From contig AP026679.1 of assembly GCA_025999155.1 (NCBI GenBank), positions 291,996-355,995 on the forward strand: a DNA stretch of 64,000 nt, written 5' to 3'. Made by a program: the position numbers and the translations under genes. Below are positions 22,862 through 47,531 of the stretch, piece by piece (position 1 is the first letter of the stretch; each line of letters opens with the position of its first letter). Below the pieces are notes generated by a model. That model was not told where the DNA came from. It ran no database searches and saw only the letters and a program-made list of their open reading frames with translations. This stretch comes from Candidatus Dojkabacteria bacterium (GTDB lineage Bacteria > Patescibacteriota > Dojkabacteria > JAOAGR01).

Positions 22862-23016
22862 TCTTTTCAACAAAATCTACATGCTTACATACATTAGGGT
22901 CACATTTTCTTTCTCAGAGCTAACTTACATCGGCTTTAGGGCTTTTATAAGTATAATATACGTAACCAAAAGCAGATACTAACCTGATTAAGTTTTTTTA
23001 CCTTTATTACAAGACA
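22862..23016 (-). pseudogene. rpmG (L33) pseudogene, copy B
   Basis: nucleotide homology to the rpmG gene at 20062-20229 but with in-frame stops after codon 9 and altered frame. Confidence 0.55.
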
Positions 23017-23149
23017 TCTGTCGAAAGTAGGTATGACCTAAGCACGAAACATGAAAATAAAAGAATAAAAAACACAGATAACGCAATAAAAACAAACAAA
23101 CCTAGCGATCGAAAGAAAAATATGAAAAAGGATCATGCACTACCTAAAA

Positions 23150-23225
<76 letters not shown>

Positions 23226-23321
23226 ACCGTATTGCGCACAAATAACGTCACATAAACTATCCCCGACAAAACAACAAAATATAAACATAAGGACCTGTCC
23301 ACCATCCAAAACTCTTACAAC

Positions 23322-23981
23322 CTATTTTGATGCAACTTCTGCTATAACAAAATTCTTTATTTTAAAACCTTCTTGTGTATTACCAACCATTACAATACTC
23401 ACTCCATCACCATTGTAATTAGATACCACTAATGCCATTTTGTTCACACCAGTGTCATACGGACTCACCCCCTCAATTCCCAAAATTATACCTTGAGAAT
23501 ATAAATCAATCGCCGATTTACCTTCTAAATGATTACAAATACCACTGATCTTTTTAGCTTGTTTTACAAAATCTGCTTCTGTAGTACTTTGCCTAAACTC
23601 TTCCAGAGTCTTAGTTCTATAAACCCTCGATAGATCAGAGTCAGATTTTTCGCAGACTGTCTTATCCAACTCCGACACTATAATCTTTTTATGTTGTTCT
23701 ACAGCCGTAACATTACCATTAACCAGAACAGATAGAAAAACAGTACACACACAACAAACTACAAACAAAACAATACCAGATATTAAAAAACAGGACTTGT
23801 TTTTACTTCCAGCTTTATTCTGAGGTACACCATACACAGCCTGGGGTGCCGAACCTGACACCGACCCCACAGTAGGCTGTACATTGACACCCATAGCCGA
23901 AGGACCGGCGGGATAATGCTGTGGCAGATTATGATTAACAGAGACTACGTTTTGCGGATTTACTTGAGTGTTCATAAACAA
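23322..23981 (-). CDS. small membrane-anchored protein, paralog C (intact, 219 aa)
   Basis: Pro/Gln-rich N-terminus, Cys-rich TM helix (CFLISGIVLFVVCCVCTVFL), conserved C-domain VCEKSDSDLS..YRTKTLEEFRQ..TEA.F..QAKKI...GNTEEGFKIK. Confidence 0.6.
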   Translation of the reverse strand: MFMNTQVNPQNVVSVNHNLPQHYPAGPSAMGVNVQPTVGSVSGSAPQAVYGVPQNKAGSKNKSCFLISGIVLFVVCCVCTVFLSVLVNGNVTAVEQHKKIIVSELDKTVCEKSDSDLSRVYRTKTLEEFRQSTTEADFVKQAKKISGICNHLEGKSAIDLYSQGIILGIEGVSPYDTGVNKMALVVSNYNGDGVSIVMVGNTQEGFKIKNFVIAEVASK

Positions 23982-24121
23982 CTATTCTTAAAAATTAAAA
24001 GACCCAAGCCATTCTAAAACTACATTCAATACTCGTCAATATGCATAAGAAAAATTACAAACAACGCGATCTCCATATAATTTTAACTAACTTATTGCAA
24101 AGTTAACAATTAAATAAACAT

Positions 24122-25384
24122 TTATCTATCAATATCATACACAAAAGTAGAAGCTGTATTCCGAGCCTCATCCAGTCTAGAAGGATCTTCAGAATCCTCA
24201 ACATCATCTATAGAAATTTTATCAGTATACTTAAACTCGATACGACCATCAGAGTAAACAACGGGACCAAAATCAATAAAATCAAATATGAGAATCTCCT
24301 TTCCAACAGTATCTGGACCTAGTAAGGTCTCTATACTACCGTCATCAAGATTCACCTTTAAAACAGACTTAGCAACACCCGAAAGAAAATATTGTCCGTA
24401 AAGAATAATATAATTACTTCCCCTATAAACCACTGGACCAAAAGTCATGACATGTTCGACATTAGCTTCGTTAATCCGGTATAAAATAGGGCCTACAGGA
24501 CTAAACTCTGCAGCAGCGATAAAGTAATTATCTCCGAAATCAATAATAACCTCATCAGACGCAGCAACAAACCTCTCACCATTATTTATTTTATACATGT
24601 TTCCATTTATTAAATGATAGCCAGTTACACCACCATCCGATTGACAAAATAATACAGGTCTTTTTTCAAATATTGTATAAGCTAAATCGTTATTCTTGTT
24701 GATAGCAATAGAAGCTATAAAATTCTCAGGTTCAGGGGTAGTATATATAACACTTACGTTCTTATTTGTATCCATCATTTTTACTTTATTAGGATCCTCA
24801 ATATCAACAAAGTATAACCGTGTACCATCCGTACTAGTCACAGGATAGGCAGGCAACCTCGGTCGACAACTATCATTTCCATTAAGTGTTAAATCATAAA
24901 AGCCGTAAGAACGATCCATGACTAGCTCACTACCCAACCTATATTCAAACTTAGAGGACCCACTATCATAATAAACATTAAACCTATCGGAATCTGGAAC
25001 ACCTCGAAGATAAAATAAAGAATTCGCATAATAAAAAGAATATGAAGGAGATAGGAAATAACCCCCACCTCCAGGTGAATCAGATGTACCATTACTAGAC
25101 ATCTCGTGATCATAATTGTTTGAAAAAACTCCTGGATGAATCTCACTAAAATAAGAATCGAAAACCCTCATAATAATATCTAAAGATACCAGAGTAATAT
25201 CACGACCATACATAAGTCCGACGGGACATAATACACTTAATAGAAAAACAACAGTTAAACAGTTACCTAAAAATTGCATCTTTTGAGGCAGACCATAGTC
25301 ACCATTCACATTTAAATGTGAAGTATTTGTACTTTTATCCTCTTGATTTTCCTTAGAAGTATTTTGATCCTCTGCAGTCAACAT
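24122..25384 (-). CDS. membrane-anchored beta-propeller-like surface protein, paralog C
   Basis: same motif series as paralogs A and B. Confidence 0.6.
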   Translation of the reverse strand: MLTAEDQNTSKENQEDKSTNTSHLNVNGDYGLPQKMQFLGNCLTVVFLLSVLCPVGLMYGRDITLVSLDIIMRVFDSYFSEIHPGVFSNNYDHEMSSNGTSDSPGGGGYFLSPSYSFYYANSLFYLRGVPDSDRFNVYYDSGSSKFEYRLGSELVMDRSYGFYDLTLNGNDSCRPRLPAYPVTSTDGTRLYFVDIEDPNKVKMMDTNKNVSVIYTTPEPENFIASIAINKNNDLAYTIFEKRPVLFCQSDGGVTGYHLINGNMYKINNGERFVAASDEVIIDFGDNYFIAAAEFSPVGPILYRINEANVEHVMTFGPVVYRGSNYIILYGQYFLSGVAKSVLKVNLDDGSIETLLGPDTVGKEILIFDFIDFGPVVYSDGRIEFKYTDKISIDDVEDSEDPSRLDEARNTASTFVYDIDR

Positions 25385-31946: not shown

Positions 31947-32291
31947 TTGTATAATCCTACGAATTTATTTGTGTTATACTTACATTACATGAATTGGGCA
32001 ACTGAACTAGTCAAAACTATATCCGGTCTCGAACTGACACCTAACTACGCGTATCTGTATTTAGGCTTCATCGCTGTAACAATAGGATTCGTAGCTTGGA
32101 TGATATATTACGCATTATTCAAAGGAGCAGTCAAAGAACTAGATCATGTAGAATGGTTATCTTTTAAAAATACAGTAAAATATACCGTAATCACTCTGGT
32201 AGCTATAGTATTCTTTAGTTCTCTTTTATTTGGCTACGACTTTCTTTTAGATCAATTAGTTAGTACAATAATACAGTATGCAAACAAATAG
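31947..32291 (+). CDS. secE: preprotein translocase subunit SecE
   Basis: C-terminal SecE TM/amphipathic region (ELDHVEWLSFKNTVKYTVITLVAIVFFSSLLFGYDFLLD); immediately upstream of nusG. Confidence 0.65.
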   Translation: MYNPTNLFVLYLHYMNWATELVKTISGLELTPNYAYLYLGFIAVTIGFVAWMIYYALFKGAVKELDHVEWLSFKNTVKYTVITLVAIVFFSSLLFGYDFLLDQLVSTIIQYANK

Positions 32292-32820
32292 CGATAAAAA
32301 AGCGAAATGGTACGTAGTTTACTGTAATAGCGGGCAAGAAGATACGGTGTCCGGTCTTATCAAAATAAGGGCACAAAATGCCGGTTTATCAGATCAAATA
32401 CAGGATTTTCTAGTCCCTACTGTGGAAAAGATTACCATACGTAAAGGGGAGAAAAAAACAGTAAAAGAAAAAGTTTACAAAGGCTATATTTTCATAAAAA
32501 TGGTGTTGAATGATCAGACATGGCCTTTGGTTAAAGATACTCCAGGAGTCATTAGATTTGCTGGTACAGGTAAAGAACCTACCCCCATACCAGAATCAGA
32601 AATCAAGGCGATTCAAGAAATTTCGGGCCAACAAATTTCCTCTTATAAACTTAATATTTCAGAAGGAGATAAAGTCAAAATCACATCAGGAGATTTCAAA
32701 GACTTTACTGGTACAGTTACAAAAATAGATTACGAAAATGGTAAAGTTACTGTCAATGTGATATTTCTAAACCGTGAAGTTCCAGTCGAACTGGATGTCA
32801 CACACATAGTACATCAATAA
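32278..32820 (+). CDS. nusG: transcription termination/antitermination factor NusG
   Basis: NGN domain (KWYVVYCNSGQEDTV) and C-terminal KOW (GDKVKITSGDFKDFTGTVTKID). Confidence 0.85.
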   Translation: MQTNSDKKAKWYVVYCNSGQEDTVSGLIKIRAQNAGLSDQIQDFLVPTVEKITIRKGEKKTVKEKVYKGYIFIKMVLNDQTWPLVKDTPGVIRFAGTGKEPTPIPESEIKAIQEISGQQISSYKLNISEGDKVKITSGDFKDFTGTVTKIDYENGKVTVNVIFLNREVPVELDVTHIVHQ

Positions 32821-32966
32821 AAATTTTATTAATGATTTATAGACCGAAGACTTTAGTCTATAAATATAATTATAACGTATAATTGTCTTTATCAAGTGTT
32901 ATATTCATTCTATAATAATTAATAATAAAGAGAATGATTTATAATTTATATTAAAATAAAAAAAGA

Positions 32967-33716
32967 ATGGCAGAAGCTAATACAAACAATCAAAACAATC
33001 AAAACAATCAAAACGATCAAAACAATCAGAAATCCAAGAAAAAATGGTTCACAATACCTGAAAGTTTTAAATATAAGCTTGTTATCTTTTTCTTAGTATT
33101 GTTATTAATTGGAGTAATTGGTGGAGGTGGTTATTTAGGCTATGTTGGTTATAAGACGCTGGGAGATAAAGATAGTGAAATACAAAATTTAAGAAAAGAG
33201 CTTGATAAATTGAACGCTGAGAGAGATTTGGGCATTGTAGATTTGCAGAAAAAATTAGATGAGAAAAATGCTAAGGTTGCAGAACTAGAAAACGAAGTTA
33301 ATTCACTAAAGACCGAGCTTAATGCAGCTCGAGCGAGAATAGATGAGTTAACGCCAAAAGACATACGTAATGTGGACTACAAAAAATTAATAAGAAATAA
33401 TGAGCTTAACGGTGATGTTTGGCTAAATCCGAGCTATGTTGACGTAAATGGTGATGGTAGGTTAGATGGTATATTCGCATATCGTACTGGAGGACCAGGT
33501 GAATTTCTTAATGTCTATGTTTACAGCTATTTTAACAACAATAATCTAACTCAAATTCTTAAAGCTGAAGGTTATTTATACGGAAAATATACTTTCGATA
33601 CAAATGAAAATGTTTTAGAAATACATTCACAAGCGGGAACTCCAGATGATCCAAGAATAGCAGTAAGTAGATTTAAATGGGACCCTGCACAAAGTAAAAT
33701 GGTGAAAGTATCGTAA
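32967..33716 (+). CDS. hypothetical membrane-anchored coiled-coil protein with N-terminal (N-N-Q)n repeat
   Basis: NNQNNQNNQNDQNNQ low-complexity, TM helix, heptad coiled coil, C-terminal globular domain; inserted between nusG and rplK. Confidence 0.5.
   Translation: MAEANTNNQNNQNNQNDQNNQKSKKKWFTIPESFKYKLVIFFLVLLLIGVIGGGGYLGYVGYKTLGDKDSEIQNLRKELDKLNAERDLGIVDLQKKLDEKNAKVAELENEVNSLKTELNAARARIDELTPKDIRNVDYKKLIRNNELNGDVWLNPSYVDVNGDGRLDGIFAYRTGGPGEFLNVYVYSYFNNNNLTQILKAEGYLYGKYTFDTNENVLEIHSQAGTPDDPRIAVSRFKWDPAQSKMVKVS
32986..33030 (+). repeat. 9-nt tandem repeat (caaaacaat)x5, in-frame, encoding (NNQ)n
   Basis: aacaatcaaaacaatcaaaacaatcaaaacgatcaaaacaatcag. Confidence 0.8.
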
Positions 33717-33860
33717 TTACTGGATTAGATTTTAAACATTTTCATGTCTAATAATTATTTGATTTAGAATTATTCATGAGTTTTTATTGGATTTTAATGT
33801 GTTCACCTATATCTTCTATATTTCAGTGTTTTTATATATAATCTTCAAGTCTATTTATTT

Positions 33861-34289
33861 ATGGCAAAAAAAATAAAGGCGGTAATCAAGATACAAGCCC
33901 CGGCTGGAAAGGCTACGCCTGCCCCTCCGATAGGACCAGCTTTAGGAGCAACTGGTATCGCGATCGGTGAGTTTGTCAAACAGTTCAATGATAGAACGGC
34001 TAATATGGGTGATTTGATAGTGCCTGCTGTCATCACAGTTTATGAAGACCGTTCGTTTACATTTGTGTTAAAAACTCCCCCTGCTTCTGAATTACTCAAA
34101 AAAGCAGCACAAATTCCAAAGGGATCTGGTAAACCAAATCGTGATAAAGTTGGCAAAATCACCAAAGCCCAAATCCGTGAAATAGCAGAAAAAAAGCTTC
34201 CGGATTTGAATACTACTGACATTGAAAAAGCTATGAAAATCATAGAAGGTACAGCAAAAAATATGGGATTGGAGGTGGTCGAGTCATGA
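33861..34289 (+). CDS. rplK: 50S ribosomal protein L11
   Basis: [12 protein letters not shown]...F signature. Confidence 0.9.
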
Positions 34290-34969
34290 AAAGGGCAAAA
34301 AATTACAAAAAGATTTTAAACTCAATGAAAAAAGCTTCGGATCTGCGAAGCTATTTAGAAATAGCTTGTCAAACAAATCCCTATAAGTTTGACCAATCGA
34401 TAGAATTAAAGATAGCGATTAAAAGATCAGCAAAAAATGTTACACCTTATAAGGTATCGGTAACTTATCCTCATAATTTTGGTAAAAATGTAAAAATTCT
34501 GGTATTTGCCGAACAAGACGATGCAAAAAAAGCTATTGAGGCAGGGGCGGATTATGCAGGATTAGATGAATATATAAATAAGATAGCAAATGAGAGCTGG
34601 TTTGACTTTGACGTAGTAATTGCTACTCCGGCAGTAATGCCACAAATAGCCCGATTAGGAAGATTCTTAGGAGCAAAAGGACTAATGCCTAACCCAAAAA
34701 CAGGTACTGTAGTCAGCGATGTAGAAACTGCGGTAAAAGAATTTAAATCTGGTCGCAAGAACTACAAAGAAGATAAAACAGGAGTAATCAACACGGTCGT
34801 GGCAAAAGTATCGCAAGGACCAGAAAAAGCTATCGAGAATATAAAGACTTTAATTGATTCGCTAAAAGAAGTTAATCCAAATATAGCAAGAGAAATAAAA
34901 TCTATCCATATCAAAACGACAATGGGGCCAAGTATGAAATTGTCTACATTGGATGTAATGAATTTATAA
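34286..34969 (+). CDS. rplA: 50S ribosomal protein L1
   Basis: typical L1 sequence; 4-nt overlap with rplK. Confidence 0.9.
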
Positions 34970-35000
34970 TAATTTAATTTAACAATCGTTTTGAAGTATA

Positions 35001-35027
35001 AAAAGCCTGGTTGTCCAGGCTTTTTAT
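35001..35027 (+). terminator. Rho-independent terminator after rplA
   Basis: AAAAGCCTGG-TTGT-CCAGGCTTTTT. Confidence 0.7.
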
Positions 35028-35129
35028 GTTACAAGTTTAAATTATTTAGACTGTAATCCTTTCTGTAGTATGAAAGAAACTTTAATTTAGATCGTTAGTC
35101 TGATACAATTCCTAAGGGTAAGGATAATT

Positions 35130-35999
35130 ATGGCACTTTCTATCAAAGCAGAAGAGTTATTTCACATTGGAGAATTGACGGTTACAAATTCTATGTTGTC
35201 AGCTTTTATTATCGTTATTGTATTAATAACTTTTTATGCTATTTATACTAAAAAATTAAATTTAATCCCGTCATCCTTCCAGCTATTTTTAGAGTGGATT
35301 ATTGAATCCATATACTCACTTGTACATAATGTTTTAGGACAACACAAGGCAAAACGTGTTTTCCCTATAATATTCAGTCTTTTTAGTTTGATAATAATAT
35401 CAAACTGGTTTGGACTACTCCCTACTACCGGTTCCATAGGTATAGCGGAAAAGAGTTATAAAGAAGGTGGCAGTCTTGGACAATTAATAGTATTTAACAT
35501 AGGTCAATCAAAGGAAGAAATTCACGAGTCTGATATCGCAGAAGAAAATAAAAAATTTCATTATGAGTTAATCCCCTTCTTCCGATCGCCATCCGCAGAT
35601 CTAAACTTCACAATTGCCTTAGCAATAATAGCGTTCGTATTAATACAATATAACGCTATAAAAGAAGGCGGATTACATTATTTAGGGAAATTTTTCGATT
35701 ACAGAGTGTCCATACCCACAGGTTGGAAAGTTGCTTTAGTACCATTCGCATTTTTAATCAATTTTCTATGGAAAACTCTAGAGCTAGTTTTAGAATTTTC
35801 CAAAATTTTGTCATTCTCATTCCGTTTGTTTGGAAATATATTTGCCGGTGAGGTTTTGCTTGTCGTTATAACAAGCTTATCGTTAGGAATCATAACTTTA
35901 CCCTTCCTAGGATTTGAGCTTTTTGTCGGATTTATACAATCAATAGTGTTTATATTCTTGACTATGGTGTTTATCCGAGTATCTCTTGATACTCATTAA
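35130..35999 (+). CDS. atpB: F0F1 ATP synthase subunit a
   Basis: polytopic; conserved Arg helix FSFRLFGNIFAGE. Confidence 0.85.
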   Translation: MALSIKAEELFHIGELTVTNSMLSAFIIVIVLITFYAIYTKKLNLIPSSFQLFLEWIIESIYSLVHNVLGQHKAKRVFPIIFSLFSLIIISNWFGLLPTTGSIGIAEKSYKEGGSLGQLIVFNIGQSKEEIHESDIAEENKKFHYELIPFFRSPSADLNFTIALAIIAFVLIQYNAIKEGGLHYLGKFFDYRVSIPTGWKVALVPFAFLINFLWKTLELVLEFSKILSFSFRLFGNIFAGEVLLVVITSLSLGIITLPFLGFELFVGFIQSIVFIFLTMVFIRVSLDTH

Positions 36000-36049
36000 A
36001 ATTAAGTAGAAGAACTTGGCAATTTGTTAAATTTGAAAGATTAGGTTAG

Positions 36050-36307
<258 letters not shown>

Positions 36308-36310
36308 AAA

Positions 36311-36799
36311 ATGGAAGAATTAGGAATAAATCTAGTGCAGATAATATCCTATGTTGTTATATTCCTATTGCTTTATTATTTTACGAGAAGATTTGTAAAA
36401 CGTGTCCTAGACAATATTGAAAAAAGAAAAAATATTATTGAGGAAGGCATACACAACGCGGCTAAAGCTCAAGAATTAAAAGAAGAAAAACTCAAAGAAG
36501 CAGAAGAAGAAAAGAAAGAAATCTTACGTAAAGCATTTATCGAGTCTGAAGATATTTTAGCAAAAGCAAAATCACAAGCAGAAAGTATCCTCGAAAAAGC
36601 AAAAACAGAAAAAGAAATAGTATTATCGAATGCAAAGAAGGAAATCGAAAATCTAAAGAATCAAGCAACTTTAGAAGGTTTGAACCGTGCTAATGAAATC
36701 ATTGCATTAGCAATGCAAAAGGCATTTGAAGGTGTTCAGCTAAGTGATGCAGATCACGCTCGCATCATTCAACAAGCTCTGGAAAAAATACGCAAATGA
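36311..36799 (+). CDS. atpF: F0F1 ATP synthase subunit b
   Basis: N-terminal TM plus long charged helix; operon position. Confidence 0.75.
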   Translation: MEELGINLVQIISYVVIFLLLYYFTRRFVKRVLDNIEKRKNIIEEGIHNAAKAQELKEEKLKEAEEEKKEILRKAFIESEDILAKAKSQAESILEKAKTEKEIVLSNAKKEIENLKNQATLEGLNRANEIIALAMQKAFEGVQLSDADHARIIQQALEKIRK

Positions 36800-37017
36800 T
36801 AACCGTTTTTACAAAAATTGAACTTAACGAAAATCTTAAGAAAATTGTGGTTCAAGCGTTAGGCAGTTATCTTGGCCATGCAATAAATATTGATGACGTG
36901 GTGTTCAATGTAGATAAATCCATAATTGCAGGACTCAAGATAAATATAGATTCGGAAATTATAGATCTGACCATTAATTACAAATTGCAAGAAATTATTA
37001 ATATATTGAAGTCATAA
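36796..37017 (+). CDS. atpH: F0F1 ATP synthase subunit delta, truncated (C-terminal domain only, 73 aa)
   Basis: VDKSIIAGLKINIDSEIIDLTI matches the delta/OSCP C-terminal beta domain; sits between atpF and atpA with 4-nt and 1-nt overlaps. Confidence 0.55.
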   Translation: MITVFTKIELNENLKKIVVQALGSYLGHAINIDDVVFNVDKSIIAGLKINIDSEIIDLTINYKLQEIINILKS

Positions 37018-38564
37018 TGGTCGAAAGCATAAAAAATAAAATAAATCAAATAGATTTTAGTAAGCCAGGTATATACTCAGAGGGAGAGGTAATATCTTAC
37101 GGCGATGGTATAGCTACAATTAATGGTCTTAAGAATGTAGCTATGGGTGAAGTGGTGCATATTTATGAATATGGCAGCCATGGAAAGTACGCACCAGCTC
37201 TCGCATTTAACCTAAGCTATGATACAGTCGGAGTCATATTACTGGATGAAACTTTGAATATTCAAACAGGTTGTATAGCAAAAACGACGGGAGAAACTCT
37301 AAATATTGAAGTAAGTGATGCTTTTTTAGGTAGAGTTATCGATATATTTGGTCGTCCAATTGATGGAAAAGGTAATATATTTCACCCGAATCCTAAAAAA
37401 CAACCAGTCGAGCGTAAGGCGTATGGTGTTATAGATAGAGAAAGTGTTAATGTACCACTTCAAACAGGCATTATTGCTATAGATGCACTTATACCTATAG
37501 GACGAGGACAAAGAGAGTTAATTATTGGAGATCGTCAAACAGGCAAAACTGCTCTTGCATTAGATATCATTATTAATCAAGGTAGAATCAACCAGAGAAT
37601 TGAAAATGGTGAAATTGAAGGTAAACCAGTATATTCAATTTATGTTGCAATAGGGCAAAAACAATCAAAAGTTGCCCAAATAATACGTAAACTTGAAGAA
37701 TTAAATGTATTAAAGTATACGATAGTACTTTCGGCTAGTAGTTCTGATTCTGCAAGTGTCCAATATCTAGCACCTTATGTGGGTACAGCAATAGGTGAAT
37801 ACTTTATGGAAATAGGTGATGACGCTCTAATAGTATATGATGACTTATCTAAACATGCACGGGCCTACAGGCAAATATCATTATTACTACACAGACCCCC
37901 TGGACGGGAAGCCTACCCTGGTGATATTTTTTATTTACACTCAAGGCTACTTGAGCGTAGTGCCAGACTAAATAAGTCTTTGGGAGGAGGATCTCTTACT
38001 TCCCTACCAATAATAGAAACTCTTGCAGGAGATATATCTGCTTACATTCCTACCAATGTAATATCTATTACTGACGGACAAATTTATCTCAAATCTGAAC
38101 TATTTAATAGTGGAATAAAACCTGCCATTGATATAGGAAACTCGGTATCACGTGTAGGAGGAAGTGCACAAATTAAGGCTATGAAGCAAGTGGCTGGACC
38201 TCTAAAACTAAATTTAGCACAGTTTAGAGAATTGCAGACTTTTGTTCAATTTGGCGTGGAAGTAGATCCAACAACACAAAAGAAAATAGATTTAGGGCTT
38301 AGATTAGTCGAAATATTAAAACAAGATCAATATTCGAGCATGCCAGTTGAAGAGGAAGTTGTGTTATTATGGGCAGTAACGCAAGGCTATGCTAACGATA
38401 TAGATTTAGAAAAGGTCCAGCCTTGGAGTAAAAGCTTATTACAATTTTTCCGTGATTATTATGCTGATACTCTACTCCATATCAACAAAGAAAAGGTTCT
38501 CAGTTCAGAAATAGAAATTAAACTTAGACAAGCAATTGACGAATTTAAAACCAAGGGAGAGTAA
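37017..38564 (+). CDS. atpA: F0F1 ATP synthase subunit alpha
   Basis: GDRQTGKT P-loop, full length. Confidence 0.95.
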   Translation: MVESIKNKINQIDFSKPGIYSEGEVISYGDGIATINGLKNVAMGEVVHIYEYGSHGKYAPALAFNLSYDTVGVILLDETLNIQTGCIAKTTGETLNIEVSDAFLGRVIDIFGRPIDGKGNIFHPNPKKQPVERKAYGVIDRESVNVPLQTGIIAIDALIPIGRGQRELIIGDRQTGKTALALDIIINQGRINQRIENGEIEGKPVYSIYVAIGQKQSKVAQIIRKLEELNVLKYTIVLSASSSDSASVQYLAPYVGTAIGEYFMEIGDDALIVYDDLSKHARAYRQISLLLHRPPGREAYPGDIFYLHSRLLERSARLNKSLGGGSLTSLPIIETLAGDISAYIPTNVISITDGQIYLKSELFNSGIKPAIDIGNSVSRVGGSAQIKAMKQVAGPLKLNLAQFRELQTFVQFGVEVDPTTQKKIDLGLRLVEILKQDQYSSMPVEEEVVLLWAVTQGYANDIDLEKVQPWSKSLLQFFRDYYADTLLHINKEKVLSSEIEIKLRQAIDEFKTKGE

Positions 38565-39448
38565 TGTCTAGTTTTTATGAATTAAAAAACCGTATAAATA
38601 CAGTTAAAAACACAGGACAGGTAACTAAGGCTCTAAAAATAGTTGCAGCGGCAAAACAAAAAAAATCCCAAACGAATTTAAAAAACTCTAGATACATACG
38701 TGATGCCTTACAAAAAATTATAGCTCAAATTCGCAAAGAATTAGGTAATGCTATCGAAAAAAACTACTTGCCGCTATTGTTTATTCCAAATCTTGAATCC
38801 AATAAGGTATTGATGGTCACGGTGATGTCAAAAAGAGGACTATGTGGCCCCCTAAACTCTAAATTGTTTTACAAAATTCTACTTAAAAAATCTGAATTAG
38901 AAGGCAAAGGCTATCATGTTCATTTTATCTCAGTCAATAAATTAGCCCAAAAATTCTTACGTAATTTTAACGAAGATGTTATCGCGTTTTTTTCTGATAT
39001 ATCAGAAAACCCTAGTCTGGACGATGTCAGCCCAATTATTAATCTAGTCAAAGAATCATATACTAAATATAGATATGTATTTTTGTGCTATTCTGACTTT
39101 GTGAAAAGCGGAATATATGAGCAAAAGATAAACCAATTACTGCCAATTGATTTACCTGAAAACAGTAATGATAATCATGATAAAAACCGTAATCTTCTGT
39201 ATTCTCAATATATAATCGAGCCAGATCCAGTCTATGTACTAGATCAAATGTCAAATTTATATGTTGATTTAGAGATTTACGAAGCTATATTGTCAAGTAT
39301 AGCATCAGAAAATACGGCCCGAATGATATCCATGAGTAAAGCTACTGATAATATCCAAAAACTTGTATACCAGCTAACTTTGAAGCTCAATAAGGAAAGA
39401 CAGGCAAGAATAACCAAACAAGTCGCAGAAATTAGTGCAAACTTATAA
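38564..39448 (+). CDS. atpG: F0F1 ATP synthase subunit gamma
   Basis: N-terminal RI.TVKNT..T.ALK.VAAAK and C-terminal helix ITKQVAEISANL. Confidence 0.85.
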   Translation: MSSFYELKNRINTVKNTGQVTKALKIVAAAKQKKSQTNLKNSRYIRDALQKIIAQIRKELGNAIEKNYLPLLFIPNLESNKVLMVTVMSKRGLCGPLNSKLFYKILLKKSELEGKGYHVHFISVNKLAQKFLRNFNEDVIAFFSDISENPSLDDVSPIINLVKESYTKYRYVFLCYSDFVKSGIYEQKINQLLPIDLPENSNDNHDKNRNLLYSQYIIEPDPVYVLDQMSNLYVDLEIYEAILSSIASENTARMISMSKATDNIQKLVYQLTLKLNKERQARITKQVAEISANL

Positions 39449-39486
39449 ATGATGTATATATTTAGGATATTTTAATAAGGCTTTAA

Positions 39487-40950
<1,464 letters not shown>

Positions 40951-40972
40951 AATATTTTTTGTATCAAGATAA

Positions 40973-41347
40973 ATGAAAGTCTATATCAGTACAGAGAAAA
41001 ATATATTATTAGATGGATTAGAATGTGAATCAGTCACCCTCCCTACTCTAAGTGGTGAAATTACCATTTTAGATGATCATAATCCTATAATAGGAGTCTT
41101 ATCAAAAGGTAAAATTCGCATACTGATAGAAAATACCAATGTCATACCCGAAATTGATGTAGATAGTGGCTACTTTGAACTAAATAATAATAATCTAACA
41201 ATATTAGTGACTAAGACTGGGCTTTCATTGGATGAAATTTCTGATATTAAACAAAAGGCCATACAGGCACGAACAAAAACTATTGGTCAAGAAGATAAAA
41301 TCAGTGAAAAAGAGTTTATAGAACGTCAAACAAGTGAAGGTTTTTGA
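40973..41347 (+). CDS. atpC: F0F1 ATP synthase subunit epsilon
   Basis: 124 aa, N-terminal beta-sandwich sequence, operon terminal position. Confidence 0.8.
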   Translation: MKVYISTEKNILLDGLECESVTLPTLSGEITILDDHNPIIGVLSKGKIRILIENTNVIPEIDVDSGYFELNNNNLTILVTKTGLSLDEISDIKQKAIQARTKTIGQEDKISEKEFIERQTSEGF

Positions 41348-41349
41348 TC

Positions 41350-41590
41350 ACTGATACGTTTTGTCTAAATATACTTTGAAATATATCTTTGAAAATATCT
41401 GCAAATTCGTTATAATTCGTTAGCGGTCTAAGAAATCAGGCATAGTTAGATAAATGCTTTTTTGTCTAACTAATAAGACCTGACGAGACTATACAAATGC
41501 CAATTAAGTCATTATATTTTCCGGTCTCGTATTTCTTAGTGCTGCGCACCTTTCGGGGGAGGTGTAATATTTATTTTGTAAAAAAATCGA
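41350..41590 (+). promoter_or_regulatory. rplJ 5' leader (possible L10/L12 autoregulatory leader)
   Basis: 240-nt untranslated spacer upstream of the MAKTKAQK start; the track ORF start at 41497 is probably not the true start. Confidence 0.3.
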
Positions 41591-42096
41591 TGGCAAAGAC
41601 AAAAGCTCAAAAAAGCCAATTACTAGCTCAATACGAACAGTATCTCAGAGAAGCTAAAGCTGTTTATTTAGCTTCGATGAATTTGACTGCTAATGAGACC
41701 GTTGAGTTAAAGCGTCGTTTAAAAAATCATGATGCTGTTTATACTGTGATTAAAAACACTTTATTTCGTATTGCTGTTCAAAATACGCTGAACAAAGAAA
41801 TTGATTTGAAAGGTCCCATTAGCGCAGTAACTGTCAAAGGAGATATTGTAGAGGTCGCAAAAGAGTTAGCTAAGTTAAAAAAAGAAGACAAAGCTCATTT
41901 TATTTCGATGATTTTAGATGGTAATATTGATGATGGTACGAAGATAGATCAAATATCGAAGCTTGAATCAAAAGAACAGTTACTAGGTAAGTTGATGTAC
42001 TTACTCAATTATCCAACGGCAGGGCTTGCTAGAGCTCTTGCTAACAATATTCAAAAATTATTATATGCACTTAATGCAGTAAAAAATTTAAAATAA
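41591..42096 (+). CDS. rplJ: 50S ribosomal protein L10
   Basis: L10 N-terminal signature from MAKTKAQKSQLLAQY... Confidence 0.85.
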
Positions 42097-42102
42097 ACGA
42101 CT

Positions 42103-42492
42103 ATGGCAGATAAAAAATTAACTATACAAGAAATAGTAGATGCAGTTGCTGAGCTCAATGTACTTGAGCTTTCAGAACTTGTTAAAGCAATTGAAGATAA
42201 ATTTGGGGTTACTGCAGCTGCTCCTGTTGCAGTAGCTGCGGCTGCTCCTGTAGCTGCTGAAGCTCCAGCAGAAGAGAAATCAGAATTTGATGTAGAAATC
42301 ACGGAAGCTGGGGCAAATAAGATTGCAGTAATCAAAGCTCTTCGAGAATTAGACCAGACTCTAGGTCTCGCTGAGGCAAAAGCAAAAGTAGATGCTGCAC
42401 CAACAGTTGTTGCAAGTGAGGTTGCAAAAGACAAGGCTGAAGCTATGAAAAAGAAACTCGAAGAAGCAGGTGCAAAAGTAACATTGAAGTAA
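42103..42492 (+). CDS. rplL: 50S ribosomal protein L7/L12
   Basis: Ala-rich hinge and C-terminal domain [16 protein letters not shown]. Confidence 0.9.
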
Positions 42493-42518
42493 AAGATACA
42501 TTATTACATATCAAGTTA

Positions 42519-42547
42519 AAACCGCCATGTAAACATGGCGGTTTTTC
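42519..42547 (+). terminator. Rho-independent terminator after rplL
   Basis: AAACCGCCATG-TAAA-CATGGCGGTTTTT. Confidence 0.75.
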
Positions 42548-42736
42548 ATTACACTATTAGTAGTGTAAATTTAATTTTGTGTACACATTTAAATCATATA
42601 CGAATTCAAACAGTAAAATTTCGAGTAGAGCACAATATTATTAAATTGAGGAAAAATTACGAACATACCTACTATACATAGCTATGTATTAGCATCAATA
42701 CGTTGACAATTCTATTCCAATTTATTATCGTGTCGT

Positions 42737-45700
42737 ATGCCGAATGTACCATATAACTCCACACAAGCGAGTCTGTATAACCAAGATACTTATAATGGAA
42801 GTAATTATGAGATACCTAAATCTCGGTATCTAACAGATGAAGAAAGAAGCCTGAAGCGTTGGGTATTGCCTACCATACTTGTATTATTAATTGTCATAAT
42901 CTTGTTGTTATGTAACAGTAGTGGTCTTATAGCTGAGGTATTACCATTTTTAAACCGTAATGTTTCTAATGGAAGTACGAGTAAAAGCCTTACTCCTGGA
43001 ATCAATTCCGATGATATATCAAATTGGAATAAAGCATTCTCGTGGGGGGATCATCGAGAAGCTGGATATCTGACAAAAGAATCTGATCCCTTGTATTCTT
43101 CAAGTCCTGCTGCCAAAATCACAGAAGATGACTTGAAAAAAATACAGGATGCCTACTCCTGGGGCAATCACACCACAGCCGGATATCTGAAGTCATATAA
43201 TGAGACTGATCCAAAATATTCATCAAGTCCTGCAAGTAGTATCACATCAAGCGATATTGCTAAATGGAACTCGAATGTTCTACCTACAGGAAATGCTTCA
43301 CAATACTTAAGGGGTGATAAAACCTGGCAAACTTTTCCTACATGTACTCCTTCACAAGCTTTAGCATGGAATGGGACAAATCTAGTTTGTGTAAACTTCC
43401 CCACCTATACAGAAACTGATCCAATTTTTACAGCAAGCCCGGCAAACTCTATTACAAACACTATGATATCTAACTGGAATACTGCTTTCTCCTGGGGGAA
43501 TCACACTACCGCCGGATATCTTACATCAGAATCTGATCCTGTGTTCTCTGCTAGTGTTGCTGCTTCAATTACTGCTGCTGATATAACTAACTGGAATAAT
43601 AAAGAGAATGCCATCTCTCTTGGCACTACATCACAATTCCTCCGTGGAGATAAAACTTGGCAAACCATTCCTACTTGTGCCGGTAATGATCGACTAATAT
43701 GGAATGGAACTAGTTTTGTTTGTTCACCTACTGGGACTTTAACTACAGAGAATGACCCTATATTTACTGGTAGCCCTGCTGCAGCTATTACCTCTGCTGA
43801 CATCACTAACTGGAACACTGCTTTCTCATGGGGAAATCATGCTACCGCTGGGTATTTAACATCAGAATCTGATCCTGTATTTGCTGCCAGTGTTGCTGCT
43901 GGTATTACATCTGCAAATATCACCAGTTGGAACAATAAAGAAAATGCTATCGCTCCCGGAACGACTTCACAATTCTTCCGTGGTGATAAAACTTGGCAAA
44001 CTATTCCTACTTGTACCGGGAATGATCGACTAATATGGAATGGAACTAGTTTTGTTTGTTCACCTACTGGGACTTTAACTACAGAGAATGACCCTATATT
44101 TACTGGTAGCCCTGCTGCAGCTATTACCTCTGCTGACATCACTAACTGGAACACTGCTTTCTCATGGGGAAATCATGCTACCGCTGGGTATTTAACATCA
44201 GAATCTGATCCTGTATTTGCTGCCAGTGTTGCTGCTGGTATTACATCTGCAAATATCACCAGTTGGAACAATAAAGAAAATGCTATCGCTCCCGGAACGA
44301 CTTCACAATTCTTCCGTGGTGATAAAACTTGGCAAACTATTCCTACTTGCCCCATCAATAACGCATTGTTATGGAATGGTAGTAATTTTATGTGCCAAAG
44401 CTTTGTATCCTCCAATAGTACGCTAAGATTGGGTACTAATGCCGGTCTGAATCTCACATCAGGTGTAAATAACACATTTCTCGGACACTGGAGCGGATAT
44501 TCAAATACAACAGCACATGCAAACACATTTGTTGGTGCACTTAGCGGTCAAGCAACCACAACGGGAGGCTGGAATACTTTTATTGGTGAATGGAGTGGTC
44601 TGTCGAACGCAACAGGAGGAGCAAACGTTTATATTGGGCATGCTAGTGGGTACTGGGCAAACGGCAGCTATAATGTTTTTTTAGGCGTGTCTGCTGGTAG
44701 GCATTTCGGCACCGGCAGCAATGCTAATACAAATCCTCTAAACTCTATTATGATCGGTTACGACACCAGACCTCAAGCGAACAATCAGGCCAATCAGATC
44801 GTCATAGGGGATTCAGCCATAGGTGCTGGTTCTAATACCACAACTATTGGAAATACTAGTGTTACTGCTACTTATTTACGAGGAAGCCTAGTAGCAAGTG
44901 ATAATATTGCAAATGGCACAACAAGAGTTGATATTACTGGTACTGGTACAGGTTGGGCAGTCTGTCACTCTGGATCAAATACGGATACAAATGATGTCTT
45001 CTTGGTCGATTGTGCGGGTACTCCCTCTGCCGACTACATGGAGATGTACCCTGTAGAATTAAATGCTCAAATAGGTGATATTCTTATGGCTTCTAATGAT
45101 TATGTTATGACACAAGATAATGAAAGAATTGTAAGACTTGTGAAAAGTGATGGAATTCATAATACCCGTGTCATTGGTGTAATGTCTGATATTAATAAAG
45201 CTGGTGATTTTAATAGCATCGGACATAATATCAGTGCATCTGATAATCCTCAACCTGTAGCACTATCTGGACGTGTCTATGTGAACATAGATCCTAGCTC
45301 TCCTGATATCGAACCTGGGGATATGATTACCATATCTAATATTCCCGGTAAAGGTAAAAAGCTTACTGGTAGTGGTTTTGTAGTTGGTAAAGCTCTAGAA
45401 GCATGGACTAGCTCATCAGGCCAGACTAAAGTCATGGTTTACATCATGAATTTTTATTACAATTCATTAGGAATAAATGATTACTTTACACTTAGTGGTA
45501 CTACACTGACTACGGATTATTTACTTGTTGTAAATGGTAGTATTACAGCAAATAACCTAGCTATAGCATCGGGCAAGTTTACAGTTGCAACCAATGGTGA
45601 CACAGTCATCGACGCTGTATTGCAAGCTAATCAAGCAGTGATAAGAAATTTAACTGTAGACAAACTAACAATCAATACAACTCCTCTCGTTGGTGATCCG

Positions 45701-45913
45701 GTTGTTGGATCAGGGACAATTACTGCAGGACAGACACGTGTTGTGATAAACAATTCCAATGTACAATCAACAAGTAAAATATTCATTACTTTGACGAGTT
45801 CAAGTACGCAAGTAATTTCTGTGATCAATAAAACCCCTGGAGTAAGTTTTGAAGTATCTATTCTAACACAACAAACAGAAGATATTACTTTTGACTATTG
45901 GATAATAAATTAA
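42737..45913 (+). CDS. large N-terminally anchored surface protein with about 112-aa tandem repeats and a tail-fiber/YadA-head-like Gly/Asn repeat region
   Basis: cytoplasmic N-terminus, one TM helix, then at least 4 repeats (..NWN.AFSWGNH.TAGYL..SDP.F..S.A..IT..DI..WN..), then NTF.G..SG..N.TGG.N..IG repeats and a Thr/Ser-rich C-terminus. Confidence 0.6.
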   Translation: MPNVPYNSTQASLYNQDTYNGSNYEIPKSRYLTDEERSLKRWVLPTILVLLIVIILLLCNSSGLIAEVLPFLNRNVSNGSTSKSLTPGINSDDISNWNKAFSWGDHREAGYLTKESDPLYSSSPAAKITEDDLKKIQDAYSWGNHTTAGYLKSYNETDPKYSSSPASSITSSDIAKWNSNVLPTGNASQYLRGDKTWQTFPTCTPSQALAWNGTNLVCVNFPTYTETDPIFTASPANSITNTMISNWNTAFSWGNHTTAGYLTSESDPVFSASVAASITAADITNWNNKENAISLGTTSQFLRGDKTWQTIPTCAGNDRLIWNGTSFVCSPTGTLTTENDPIFTGSPAAAITSADITNWNTAFSWGNHATAGYLTSESDPVFAASVAAGITSANITSWNNKENAIAPGTTSQFFRGDKTWQTIPTCTGNDRLIWNGTSFVCSPTGTLTTENDPIFTGSPAAAITSADITNWNTAFSWGNHATAGYLTSESDPVFAASVAAGITSANITSWNNKENAIAPGTTSQFFRGDKTWQTIPTCPINNALLWNGSNFMCQSFVSSNSTLRLGTNAGLNLTSGVNNTFLGHWSGYSNTTAHANTFVGALSGQATTTGGWNTFIGEWSGLSNATGGANVYIGHASGYWANGSYNVFLGVSAGRHFGTGSNANTNPLNSIMIGYDTRPQANNQANQIVIGDSAIGAGSNTTTIGNTSVTATYLRGSLVASDNIANGTTRVDITGTGTGWAVCHSGSNTDTNDVFLVDCAGTPSADYMEMYPVELNAQIGDILMASNDYVMTQDNERIVRLVKSDGIHNTRVIGVMSDINKAGDFNSIGHNISASDNPQPVALSGRVYVNIDPSSPDIEPGDMITISNIPGKGKKLTGSGFVVGKALEAWTSSSGQTKVMVYIMNFYYNSLGINDYFTLSGTTLTTDYLLVVNGSITANNLAIASGKFTVATNGDTVIDAVLQANQAVIRNLTVDKLTINTTPLVGDPVVGSGTITAGQTRVVINNSNVQSTSKIFITLTSSSTQVISVINKTPGVSFEVSILTQQTEDITFDYWIIN
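43660..44345 (+). repeat. two DNA-identical 336-bp (112-codon) tandem units within the surface-protein gene, with older divergent units upstream (about 43000-43660)
   Basis: 43685-43996 is identical to 44021-44332; the period is exactly 336 nt; the minus-strand ORFs 43501-44526 are mirror artefacts of these repeats. Confidence 0.85.
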
Positions 45914-46055
45914 ATGAATTCTTGATTGCTAATAAGAAGTATTAGCTAAACGCTGCTTATGTACACTAGATTTCTGTCTTACAGTAATGCTTTTAAAAAT
46001 GGCTACTTTACTCTAGAATATCAATACTCGTTATTTGAGTCTTTACTATATAACG

Positions 46056-47531
46056 ATGCTCAAAATTTACAATACAGCTAGTCGTAAACAAGAAGTTTTT
46101 GCCCCCCTCGATCCAAATAAGGTCACTATGTATAATTGCGGTCTTACGGTGTATGATCGAGCTCATATAGGCAACCTTAGGTCATTCACAATGGCCGATA
46201 TTATTCGACGCACGTTAGAATACTTAGGGTATAAAATCATACAAGTACAAAATTTTACAGATGTAGGACATGAAACTTTCACTGACGAACAAAAAGCTAA
46301 ATTATCTCAGGCTACACAATCGTCAATAGAAATTACAGATACAGATGTAGGTATAGATCGCCTTGAAAAAACATCAAAACGTACTGGCATGACACCCTGG
46401 GAAGTGGCCGAACTTTACATTCGTTTAGCAATACAAGACTATCAAGCTATGAATTTTCTTGAGCCAGCACATCGTCCTAGAGCTACAGAACATATCAAAG
46501 AACAACAAGATCTAATTTTAAAATTATTAGCAAAAGGTTATGCATATATTACAAACTCAGCGATCTATTATGATACAAACAAATTTGAAAAATACTGGAA
46601 CTTTGCAGGACAAAAAGCAGAGGACAAAAAAGTCGGCGTAAGAACAGAAATAGAAGTCGATCCTGAAAAACGTAATCCTAGCGATTTTCGTCTTTGGCAG
46701 TTTAATAGGCCTGATCACACAATGCAATGGGATTTTATTATAGACGGGGTGAATTATAGAGGGTACCCTGGTTGGCATATTGAATGCTCAGCCATGGCAC
46801 ATACATATTTAGGTCACCCAATAGATATACATACCGGCGGTGCTGATCATATTGCGGTACATCATCCCAATGAAATAGCACAAAGTGAACCTATATACGG
46901 CGAACCATATGTGAGATACTGGTACCACAATGCCTTTCTTACCGTAGACAATAAAAAAATGGGCAAGTCTTTAGGTAATGCATACAATCTCGATGACATA
47001 CGCGCTAAAGGTTTTGACCCTCTTGATTTAAGATACTTTTATCTGACAGCAGATTTTCGTACTCCTCAGAACTTTACTTGGCAATCTCTTAAAGCCTCTC
47101 AAGTTGCACGAAACAAAATCATTCGTACTATGAAAGAATTAAAGCAATCCTTATCAGAAAAGGATAATAATCAAGATCACGTTACATATCAATATGAAGA
47201 GAAATTTAAAGAAGCAATAGAAGATAGCTTCAATATGCCAAAAGCTCTATCTGTTCTTTGGGAGGTCATAAATAGCGAAATAAGTGTAAAACAAAAGCTA
47301 CATCTTATTTATGACTTTGATAGAGTATTTGGTCTAAAATTATCAGAGACAGAACCAGATACAATTGATCCGGATATACATAAAAAATTGCTTACGATTA
47401 TAGCGCAGCGTGATAAAGCCAAAAGTAAAAAAGATTTTCAACAAGCAGATGAATTAAGAGAAAAAGCAAGGAAATTAGGTTTTGAACTAATCGACACTCC
47501 AAAAGGCACTAAATATCAACAGATTATATAA
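46056..47531 (+). CDS. cysS: cysteine--tRNA ligase (start placed at MLKIYNT)
   Basis: class I HIGH-like motif (CGLTVYDRAHIGN), KMGKS, zinc-binding Cys/His pattern of CysRS. Confidence 0.9.
   Translation: MLKIYNTASRKQEVFAPLDPNKVTMYNCGLTVYDRAHIGNLRSFTMADIIRRTLEYLGYKIIQVQNFTDVGHETFTDEQKAKLSQATQSSIEITDTDVGIDRLEKTSKRTGMTPWEVAELYIRLAIQDYQAMNFLEPAHRPRATEHIKEQQDLILKLLAKGYAYITNSAIYYDTNKFEKYWNFAGQKAEDKKVGVRTEIEVDPEKRNPSDFRLWQFNRPDHTMQWDFIIDGVNYRGYPGWHIECSAMAHTYLGHPIDIHTGGADHIAVHHPNEIAQSEPIYGEPYVRYWYHNAFLTVDNKKMGKSLGNAYNLDDIRAKGFDPLDLRYFYLTADFRTPQNFTWQSLKASQVARNKIIRTMKELKQSLSEKDNNQDHVTYQYEEKFKEAIEDSFNMPKALSVLWEVINSEISVKQKLHLIYDFDRVFGLKLSETEPDTIDPDIHKKLLTIIAQRDKAKSKKDFQQADELREKARKLGFELIDTPKGTKYQQII

Follow-up and report, generated by a model that had tools for sequence, protein, structure and literature searches.

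A putative membrane-anchored surface fibre built from phage tail-fibre-like modules in a Candidatus Dojkabacteria genome

Described fibre systems and the Dojkabacteria protein

Phage tail fibres of the PHROGs family phrog_9729 are built from tandem 39-aa modules ([ED][ST]DP.F..S.A..IT...I..WN.A..WGNH..GYL) and ..LRGD.TW.. modules. They are encoded in virion gene clusters and have no N-terminal transmembrane (TM) helix. We found the same modules in the product of a 1058-codon open reading frame (ORF) of a Candidatus Dojkabacteria genome. The ORF lies directly 3' of rplL (42103-42492), after a spacer of 244 nt, in a 64,000-nt stretch of contig AP026679.1 (assembly GCA_025999155.1), which we call the window; all positions are those of the window unless another sequence is named. 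In contrast to the phage genes, this gene is chromosomal and syntenic, and its product is predicted to be membrane-anchored with a C-terminus typical for the Candidate Phyla Radiation (CPR).

Bacteroidota 'tail fiber domain-containing proteins' are also cellular proteins with phage-fibre parts. They share with the window protein a homologous Gly/Asn-rich block and cap, and many contain the same stalk modules, here named S and L. They end in Peptidase_S74 (PF13884), in some cases with PF18962, which we take to be the type IX secretion system (T9SS) sorting domain. Conversely, the window protein has no PF13884. In its place are a domain resembling part of phi29 gp12 and a K1-lyase_C-like tip, and there is an N-terminal TM segment rather than PF18962.

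The C-terminal domain of gp12, the pre-neck appendage protein of Bacillus phage phi29 (3suc, 3gq7), is an auto-chaperone (Peptidase_G2) that is removed by autocleavage after trimerisation. The fold predicted for aa ~765-910 of the window protein resembles that of pre-mature gp12, and the motif order D-[FY]-x-E-x-[FY] ... G ... [IV]IGV[IM]S can be aligned with the cleavage region of gp12. However, the window protein has no Pfam match to the sequence family, no pectin-lyase-type β-helix 'tassel' was identified in it, and ~150 residues follow the domain. Tailspikes of Klebsiella and other phages carry the C-terminal domain K1-lyase_C (PF24146). The last ~70 aa of the window protein are modelled as the same small β-sandwich, but no lyase or depolymerase β-helix precedes it.

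Gram-positive fibrillar adhesins consist of a repeat stalk and an adhesive tip domain; DNA-identical repeats and changes in copy number are typical of them. The window protein likewise has an anchor, a tandem-repeat stalk of variable length and a putative distal binding domain, but its modules are those of phage fibres, not Ig-like domains, and it would probably be trimeric and nucleated from the C-terminus. An LPXTG (LP.TG) sortase motif is absent from the protein, and the only hydrophobic segment is N-terminal. A sortase-anchored Gram-positive adhesin was rejected for want of this motif and of a C-terminal hydrophobic tail.

Repeat-rich surface adhesins with DNA-identical units are commonplace, and in Bacteroidota, tail-fibre domains of phage type are already annotated in cellular proteins. 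In the literature that we searched, this family of proteins was not described from Dojkabacteria or the CPR. As far as those searches reach, no description exists of the combination of an N-terminal TM segment, an S/L stalk, a Gly/Asn block, then a gp12-like domain where others carry S74, and a K1-lyase_C-type tip; nor has it been described how large and how CPR-biased the family of the C-terminal domain is.

We think it reasonably probable that the gene encodes a membrane-anchored, phage-fibre-like adhesive surface fibre of a Dojkabacteria-like CPR bacterium. In such a fibre, the chain would be exported and its N-terminus would stay in the cytoplasmic membrane via one TM helix. The S/L stalk would be followed outward by the Gly/Asn block, which resembles a β-solenoid, and then by a C-terminal assembly and tip module. 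This module would consist of a domain like the gp12 auto-chaperone and decoration proteins, probably an intertwined neck, and a K1-lyase_C-type β-sandwich. By analogy with phage fibres, three chains are most likely zipped together from the C-terminal domain, with the distal end binding a glycan on the surface of a partner or host cell. Recombination would re-tune the length of the stalk and its cassettes. Topology, trimerisation, adhesion, ligand and any C-terminal autoprocessing are parts of this scheme that we infer. An anchored protein of 1058 aa after rplL, similar to adhesins or tail fibres, had been proposed from the DNA letters in an original prediction. The match of the stalk to phrog_9729, the tailspike- and appendage-like C-terminal model and the conservation of the TM segment in an orthologue all agree with that proposal.

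Anchor, stalk and repeat history

The only strong hydrophobic segment of the protein is at aa 43-59. The closest protein relatives are in Candidatus Dojkabacteria metagenome-assembled genomes (MAGs), KatS3mg083 and KatS3mg084, and on a 723-kb contig of GCA_017880035.1. An N-terminal hydrophobic segment is also found in two of the relatives, the orthologue P0001 (1496 aa; GCA_017880035.1; 61% identity over 95% of the query) and P0002 (1100 aa; JGI contig L084). Residues 1-41 are presumed to be cytoplasmic. All 10 of the 10 ectodomain Cys residues fall into five pairs 15-16 residues apart, with one pair per L module plus C743/C759, and this pairing fits an oxidising, extracytoplasmic location. 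The original prediction had the N-terminus inside, a TM segment and the remainder outside. The single TM segment was recovered. The N-in/C-out orientation is what we infer from the K/R cluster at aa 28-41 and from the Cys pairs, which occur only C-terminal of the TM segment. N-glycosylation sequons were not clearly enriched in the protein (27 observed, ~22 expected). Matches to Pfam C4, Apicomplexa microprotein and DUF5831 fell below threshold and were set aside as chance matches to Cys or repeat motifs.

The stalk alternates two modules (Table 1). The S module has 39 aa, E[ST]DP.F..SPA..IT...I..WN.AFSWGNH..AGYL, with the ending [FY]SWG[ND]H..AGYL. The L module has ~73 aa; its start is S-like and is followed by WNNKENAI..GT.SQF[LF]RGDKTWQT.PTC-x14-C. 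In PHROGs, the stalk matched phrog_9729 'tail fiber protein' in 6 stretches (E 1.4e-66, 226.6 bits), with further matches to phrog_22284 (tail fiber) and others. When 50,697 phage genomes were searched by tblastn, the modules were found in 'tail fiber(-like)' proteins of T4-like cyanophages (S-H9-1, S-RSM4 and the ACG-2014 series); Arthrobacter phages have them in their minor tail proteins. A collection of 5.8 billion proteins contained 1490 matching proteins, from Bacteroidota, SR1, Sumerlaeota, Nanoarchaeota and others, and stalk-matching proteins often carry Peptidase_S74, Lcl_C or T9SS domains.

We modelled aa 224-375 with AlphaFold2 (AF2), using a 35-row alignment; the predicted local distance difference test (pLDDT) score was 73. 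In the model, each module starts with a short helix pair, and L modules have, in addition, two β-hairpins that surround RGDKTW and the Cys pair. A Foldseek search of the PDB with this stalk-unit model found no similar solved structure. In the proposed fibre, a Cys-x14-Cys pair would pin each L module. We read the RGD of the stalk as a conserved structural motif of the modules and not as evidence of integrin-type binding.

Table 1. Positions of the fibre gene, its parts and nearby signals in the window.
Feature	Position	Strand	Basis or detail
Coding sequence, 1058-aa putative surface fibre protein	42737..45913	+	ORF list, ATG start
N-terminal segment, aa 1-41, Tyr/Asn/Gln-rich, K/R cluster aa 28-41	42737..42859	+	sequence; conserved in P0001, P0004
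Predicted single TM anchor helix, aa 42-60 (WVLPTILVLLIVIILLLCN)	42860..42916	+	highest Kyte-Doolittle value (3.38) at aa 43-59
Stalk, aa 85-555, modules in the order S S L S L S L S L	42989..44401	+	motif map, phrog_9729, AF2
Four ~112-aa units	U1 43073-43405, U2 43406-43741, U3 43742-44077, U4 44078-44413	+	DNA comparison
Identical 329-bp tract, first copy (end of U2 and most of U3)	43685..44013	+	exact comparison at offset 336
Identical 329-bp tract, second copy (end of U3 and most of U4)	44021..44349	+	exact comparison, Tandem Repeats Finder period 336
Three antisense ORFs, 336-nt spacing	43501-43818, 43837-44154, 44173-44526	-	105, 105 and 117 aa; ORF list
Gly/Asn-rich block, aa 556-720, ending in cap 'NQIVIGDSAIGAGSNTTTIGNTS'	44402..44896	+	motif positions
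Conserved CPR-type domain, aa ~740-910: Cys pair C743/C759, A-D-Y-x-E-M-Y, β-rich core	44954..45466	+	phmmer, AF2, Foldseek
Candidate autoprocessing site, codons A765-D766-Y-M-E769	45029..45043	+	hhalign to gp12; hypothetical
Linker, aa 911-987	45467..45697	+	AF2 monomer pLDDT 46-63, no secondary structure; β-prone T/V/I/N repeats
C-terminal β-sandwich, aa 988-1058, K1-lyase_C / tailspike-tip type	45698..45910	+	AF2 pLDDT 82-96, Foldseek
Intrinsic terminator hairpin after rplL	42518..42545	+	12-bp stem and U-run; -18.1 kcal/mol, z = -5.5 vs shuffles
Promoter-like site TTGACA-17-TATCGT	42703..42731	+	consensus scan, 10/12 matches; consensus match only

Tandem Repeats Finder reported one array (43470-44349; period 336, 2.6 copies, 93% matches, score 1494). 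At least four repeats of ~112 aa had been predicted, and four units, U1 to U4, could be delimited. In DNA, U3 and U4 are 90.8% identical over the whole unit and diverge only toward the 3' end of U4. The corresponding values are 81% for U2 and U3 and ~61% for U1 against the others. An exact identity of 312 bp between 43685-43996 and 44021-44332 had also been claimed. This is correct, and the perfect tract is longer, at 329 bp. Extending the comparison, 43649-44013 and the sequence 336 nt further on agree over 365 nt with 3 mismatches only (43666, 43679 and 43684). It is impossible that the identity of the tract arose by chance. A length of 365 nt is just over one period, as predicted for one round of unequal crossing-over or slippage in an older, diverged array. 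A gene-conversion tract would give the same pattern. The best explanation is that one 336-bp unit has been gained very recently, by unequal crossing-over or slippage, or has been homogenised by gene conversion.

The predicted ladder of antisense ORFs across 43501-44526 is present and is best read as spurious. The three ORFs lie fully within a sense ORF that has syntenic orthologues. The orthologue contains antisense ORFs of similar size with other boundaries and start codons, which would be expected if they arise from the repeat; we regard the ladder as a by-product of the tandem repeat and not as genes.

The module string differs between relatives. The window protein has SSLSLSLSL and 5 Gly/Asn repeats, P0001 has SSLSSLSSSSSSSSLSLL and 8, and P0002 has SSLSSL and 19. 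One array in P0001 repeats the 117-bp S unit 8.2 times, with 80% identity, and the 336-bp units of P0001 are 89% alike. A recent duplication or ongoing variation in repeat number, as originally proposed, is supported by the differing strings of syntenic orthologues and by a tract that fits a one-period crossover, in a comparison of species and not of individuals. GCA_017880035.1 has two fibre genes. Their first ~940 nt, counted from 7 nt ahead of the start codon, are 95% identical, and for their last ~910 nt the value is 93%; the middle is different. The near-identical ends suggest gene conversion between the paralogues. The ends are conserved and the middles differ, and thus the family has exchangeable middles. 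Overall, the stalk is best explained as a recombination hot-spot that would change by gain and loss of units. A metagenome scan with the N-terminal 223 aa gave remote motif-level matches only and no orthologues. Exact look-ups of the window protein, and of the protein P0003, returned no record.

The second fibre gene of GCA_017880035.1, at another locus (L085, 8001-12188), is split into P0004 (771 aa) and P0122 (605 aa), with 54 nt between the two ORFs. Either the gene is a pseudogene or in a phase-off state, or the split comes from a sequencing error.

Only one public sequence is identical to the fibre locus. Nucleotides 342-2056 of BPIX01000005.1 (KatS3mg083), close to the start of that contig, match window positions 44371-46084 with one indel. 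This 1.7-kb identical tract runs through the 3' half of the fibre gene and the spacer and takes in the first 50 nt of cysS. Beyond it, identity abruptly becomes ~80-91% over the remaining 9.8 kb. The first 341 nt of the contig are a frameshifted copy of a paralogue-type middle region. Given the abrupt drop and the frameshifted start, BPIX01000005.1 is therefore either a chimeric MAG contig or the result of a very recent cassette exchange between populations.

These observations bear on whether the number of identical units in the window was mis-resolved during assembly. The actual number could then be lower or higher, or the units might not be identical; the gene would still be real. A perfect tandem repeat of 329 bp exceeds what short reads or k-mers resolve, and the modules are common to paralogues at 80-95% identity. 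The 336-bp units of the orthologue are only 89% alike. In addition, BPIX01000005.1 begins 22 bp past the array after frameshifted sequence, as is typical of assembly trouble. However, assemblers usually collapse identical tandem copies and do not create them. The reading frame is intact, 365 nt with 3 mismatches fits exactly one period, and module number varies among orthologues. Hence, we consider an assembly artefact unlikely.

Distal domains and proposed function

The Gly/Asn block contains five to eight repeats of ~17 residues, N-T-F-[IVL]-G-x-x-S-G-x-x-N-T-T-G-x-x. Such NTF.G repeats had been assigned to the C-terminal half as a whole. They are present, but confined to aa ~556-720. The block is 35-45% identical to the repeat block of P0126, a Bacteroidales 'tail fiber domain-containing protein', in which block and cap stop ~57 aa upstream of the Peptidase_S74 domain. 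PHROGs also gave a match to phrog_4636 'tail spike' (E 3.4e-7). The block is probably a β-solenoid.

Two likenesses had been suggested for the block, to phage tail fibres and to the YadA head. The first holds because the block is homologous to the pre-S74 block of the Bacteroidales proteins. The second does not. YadA-family proteins are, like the predicted fibre, elongated surface adhesins built from repeats, and the Gly/Asn repeats are superficially similar to those of the YadA head. However, neither the whole protein nor aa 556-720 alone matched YadA_head (PF05658) at E<=1. A BLASTP comparison with the YadA_head region of P0012, a distant relative that carries true YadA_head repeats, gave E 1.9. 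There is also no C-terminal β-barrel anchor, as judged from the lack of a Pfam anchor match and from a C-terminus whose model is a soluble, tailspike-type β-sandwich; the window protein has its N-terminal TM segment instead. A YadA-head protein or trimeric autotransporter was rejected on these grounds.

The region after the block belongs to a large family. At E<=1e-3, a phmmer search with aa 720-1058 against 1.84 billion cluster representatives returned 4933 proteins, most of which have 1000-3400 aa and contain the match (aa ~726-910 of the query) close to their C-terminus. A pattern and tblastn scan of 185,579 species genomes found 94 relatives of the C-terminal domain. The 80 that were retained are almost all from the CPR (Saccharibacteria, Woese-, Nomura-, Uhr-, Levy-, Wolfe- and Peregrinibacteria, and Paceibacterota), together with some MAGs that bear other labels. 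The CPR relatives include 27 complete ORFs with a median length of 1610 aa, and 15 of the 27 have an N-terminal hydrophobic segment. No copy of the module was found in INPHARED phage genomes by tblastn or in IMG/VR contigs by pattern scan. By sequence, the C-terminal module thus appears nearly CPR-specific.

The AF2 model of the C-terminal region (15-row alignment, pLDDT 73 overall) is confident for aa ~769-909 (pLDDT 83-95) and for aa ~989-1058, and poor between them, where the linker may form an intertwined trimeric neck. In Foldseek searches of the PDB, the first domain resembled phage decoration and cement proteins (Borrelia phage BB1, 8pkh, E 9e-4; XM1; the base of phi29 gp8.5) and pre-mature phi29 gp12 (3suc, E 7.7e-3). 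The last domain resembled tailspike and depolymerase C-termini, those of Klebsiella phage K64-1 depolymerase S2-4 (32% identity over 96 columns), of the Pam1 and Sf6 tailspikes and of phi297. Among the predicted viral structures of BFVD, the best matches were 'Preneck appendage protein' models (E 5e-8, target TM-score 0.60) and K1-lyase_C proteins. Structure prediction, which had been proposed as a check, thus gave C-terminal models that resemble parts of phage tailspikes and appendages. In Pfam, K1-lyase_C was matched by the last ~60 residues of P0124 (29.7 bits) and P0003 (27.0 bits), for a cut-off of 27 bits. The window protein itself was not in the output for PF24146 at E<=1. On the basis of the model, aa 988-1058 are a candidate distal ligand-binding domain.

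The lead to gp12 was followed with a profile of 186 family members, whose consensus is A.C...DC..tp.aDyaEmYpv..GDiV ... iGivS ... gDF.S.G.NI...DnP.PvAL.GRV. The corresponding stretch of phi29 gp12 is ...GGNTWSDFAEYFESLDGQVIETGYLVTLEKGKIRKAEKGEKIIGVISE.... Aligned by hhalign to gp12 residues 640-854, the profile places A765-D766-Y-M-E769 on S691-D692-F-A-E695 and RVIGVMSD on KIIGVISE. With a shallower profile of 15 sequences, the hhalign probability was 0.2%. Mature gp12* ends at residue 691 (PMC6542822). The gp12-like domain sits after the Gly/Asn block, where the Bacteroidales relatives carry the S74 chaperone, and by analogy it is likely to nucleate trimer formation.

The same alignment raises a variant of the proposed fibre, in which the protein is a pro-protein. 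The C-terminal ~293 aa, from D766, would be autocleaved after trimerisation, leaving the Gly/Asn block as the mature tip. Besides the alignment of A765-D766...E769 with S691-D692...E695, the D and E of the motif are at least 80% conserved in the 186 family members, and the Bacteroidales relatives have their Peptidase_S74 chaperone at the same position. Conversely, Pfam Peptidase_G2 does not match the window protein, and the hhalign probability is low. The CPR homologues always continue for 200-500 residues beyond the domain, including a β-sandwich like that of tailspike tips. The same fold is found in decoration proteins that are not cleaved, and some tailspike C-terminal domains, such as that of P22, are not cleaved either (PMC3357383). 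Autocleavage at A765/D766 is only possible, because it would give up, at a high cost, a large distal region whose β-sandwich resembles a tailspike tip, and because the same fold occurs in uncleaved proteins. We regard both such cleavage and the pro-protein variant that depends on it as doubtful.

A role for the membrane-anchored fibre in adhesion would follow by analogy with phage fibres and tailspikes, which trimerise and bind glycans distally. In the few cultivated Saccharibacteria, type IV pili, extracellular glycan-binding surface proteins and adhesins are essential for epibiotic growth (PMC10633639). This requirement makes an adhesin biologically reasonable. Alternatively, the fibre might not be adhesive, and might instead be an envelope spacer, an S-layer-associated structure, or a decoy or shield against phage, with repeats that vary for antigenic or phage evasion. 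An architecture of anchor, stalk and tip does not by itself specify a ligand, and fast-varying surface repeats are also typical of evasion functions. However, the distal domains are of receptor-binding or depolymerase-associated types. Moreover, the C-terminal module is concentrated in the CPR, whose few cultivated members need host attachment (PMC10633639). Hence, a non-adhesive fibre seems improbable to us.

Several points weigh against an adhesive surface fibre. The interpretation is drawn from sequence and predicted structures. The positive-inside signal is weak, with 5 K/R and 5 D/E in aa 1-41. Searches with the whole protein found no curated family at threshold in Pfam and no match in NCBIfam, and protein and profile searches of PDB sequences gave chance matches only (a major tail protein, E 0.09; a myosin light chain, E 0.1). 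The structure models are of monomers and of moderate confidence (pLDDT 73), and the PDB fold matches are weak (best E 9e-4, TM-score 0.26-0.6). For the alignment with gp12, the 186-sequence profile gave E 7.9e-4, in a single comparison, with a probability of only 25%. Because BPIX01000005.1 begins past the array and looks chimeric, no second assembly covers the copy number. Finally, epibiotic life is known from cultivated Saccharibacteria and not for Dojkabacteria.

How CPR bacteria recognise and hold partner cells is largely uncharted beyond the few cultivated Saccharibacteria, and the locus offers a concrete, domain-resolved candidate for attachment in Dojkabacteria. Two large uncurated families, the S/L modules and the gp12-like CPR domain (~4900 cluster representatives), could be used to find CPR fibres. 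The locus also illustrates a route to fast change in fibres, through unit duplication and through conserved ends around variable middles. It carries a warning, too: metagenome assemblies are broken or scrambled at such genes, and without long reads neither the copy numbers nor the chimeric forms found in MAGs can be relied on.

More speculatively, CPR bacteria may have adopted the whole design of the receptor-binding fibre of a phage, with its modular stalk, β-solenoid, C-terminal auto-chaperone and tailspike-type tip, added a membrane anchor and made it a main organ of host attachment, with cassettes swapped as in phages. We hold this broader idea only tentatively. If it were true, repeats gained or lost and cassettes exchanged between paralogues, and even between co-occurring species, would re-tune the fibre's specificity and reach. 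The 1.7-kb 100%-identical tract would be one such exchange. In that case, the C-terminal family, which has at least 4900 cluster representatives and is not in Pfam, would be the mark of a large class of CPR adhesins that is still undescribed.

Genomic context and neighbouring features

The window is cellular DNA; it contains genes for ribosomal proteins, the operon of an ATP synthase, cysS, a tmRNA and nine tRNAs. The context of P0001 is the same (nusG ... rplK-rplA-atpBEFHAGDC-rplJ-rplL-[fibre]-cysS-uppP-mreB), its neighbours are housekeeping genes only, and the flanks of the two loci are 87-91% identical in DNA. P0002 likewise precedes cysS-uppP-mreB.

Positions 25-501 of L084, immediately upstream of P0002, hold the 3' end of another fibre gene with a K1-lyase_C-like terminus. 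Therefore, some relatives have two tandem fibre genes before cysS.

Every module of the window protein has relatives in phage tail fibres or tailspikes, by hidden Markov model or by predicted fold, as would be expected of a phage or prophage tail-fibre gene, or its remnant, that serves a virion. However, the protein has an N-terminal TM anchor instead of a domain for attachment to a tail or baseplate. There are no phage genes nearby, and genomes that are only ~88% identical keep the gene in its place between rplL and cysS. The C-terminal module is absent from the phage and viral collections and common in CPR genomes. The GC content of the gene (0.38-0.39) is only slightly above that of its flanks (0.33-0.36). 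A prophage origin was rejected on synteny and on the lack of viral relatives of the C-terminus, and we consider it very improbable. On this evidence, we take the gene to be chromosomal and cellular.

A diversity-generating retroelement target was also considered. A blastn comparison (word size 9) of the gene with the whole window found no template-like repeat, nor anything else, outside the gene, and this candidate was rejected; the other ORFs were not scanned for a reverse transcriptase. No paralogue of the fibre gene was found elsewhere in the window.

The terminator after rplL separates the fibre gene from the ribosomal-protein operon. Together with the promoter-like site, it makes the fibre gene look like a transcription unit of its own. 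The -10 element of the promoter-like site stops 5 nt upstream of the fibre ATG, and no Shine-Dalgarno-like sequence is visible between 42703 and 42737. Because the -10 element ends so close to the ATG, the mRNA may lack a leader or have only a very short one.

The gene order upstream is unusual. A full F-type ATP synthase operon lies between rplK-rplA and rplJ-rplL (window ~32278-42492; also L001 1-9759), and this order is kept in GCA_017880035.1. The genes rpoB and rpoC usually come after rplL; in the window, the fibre gene and cysS are found in their place. On the minus strand, an Ala/Ser-rich ORF of 127 aa (42051-42434) overlaps nearly the whole of rplL; presumably it is spurious and mirrors the Ala-rich linker of L7/L12. 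The same linker yields an 18-bp tandem repeat at 42216-42258.

Two further features lie elsewhere in the window. A tandem segmental duplication of ~2.65 kb (20060-21851 and 22855-24500; 78-91% identity) takes in both tRNA-Thr(GGT) genes (20501-20576 and 23150-23225) together with the minus-strand ORFs next to them (138 and 430 aa in one copy, 219 and 420 aa in the other). The minus strand carries, at 13379-13802, a gene for tmRNA (Rfam, 131 bits); the tag predicted for it is long, AENKLSELGRSIISAITPQQVVQLAA.

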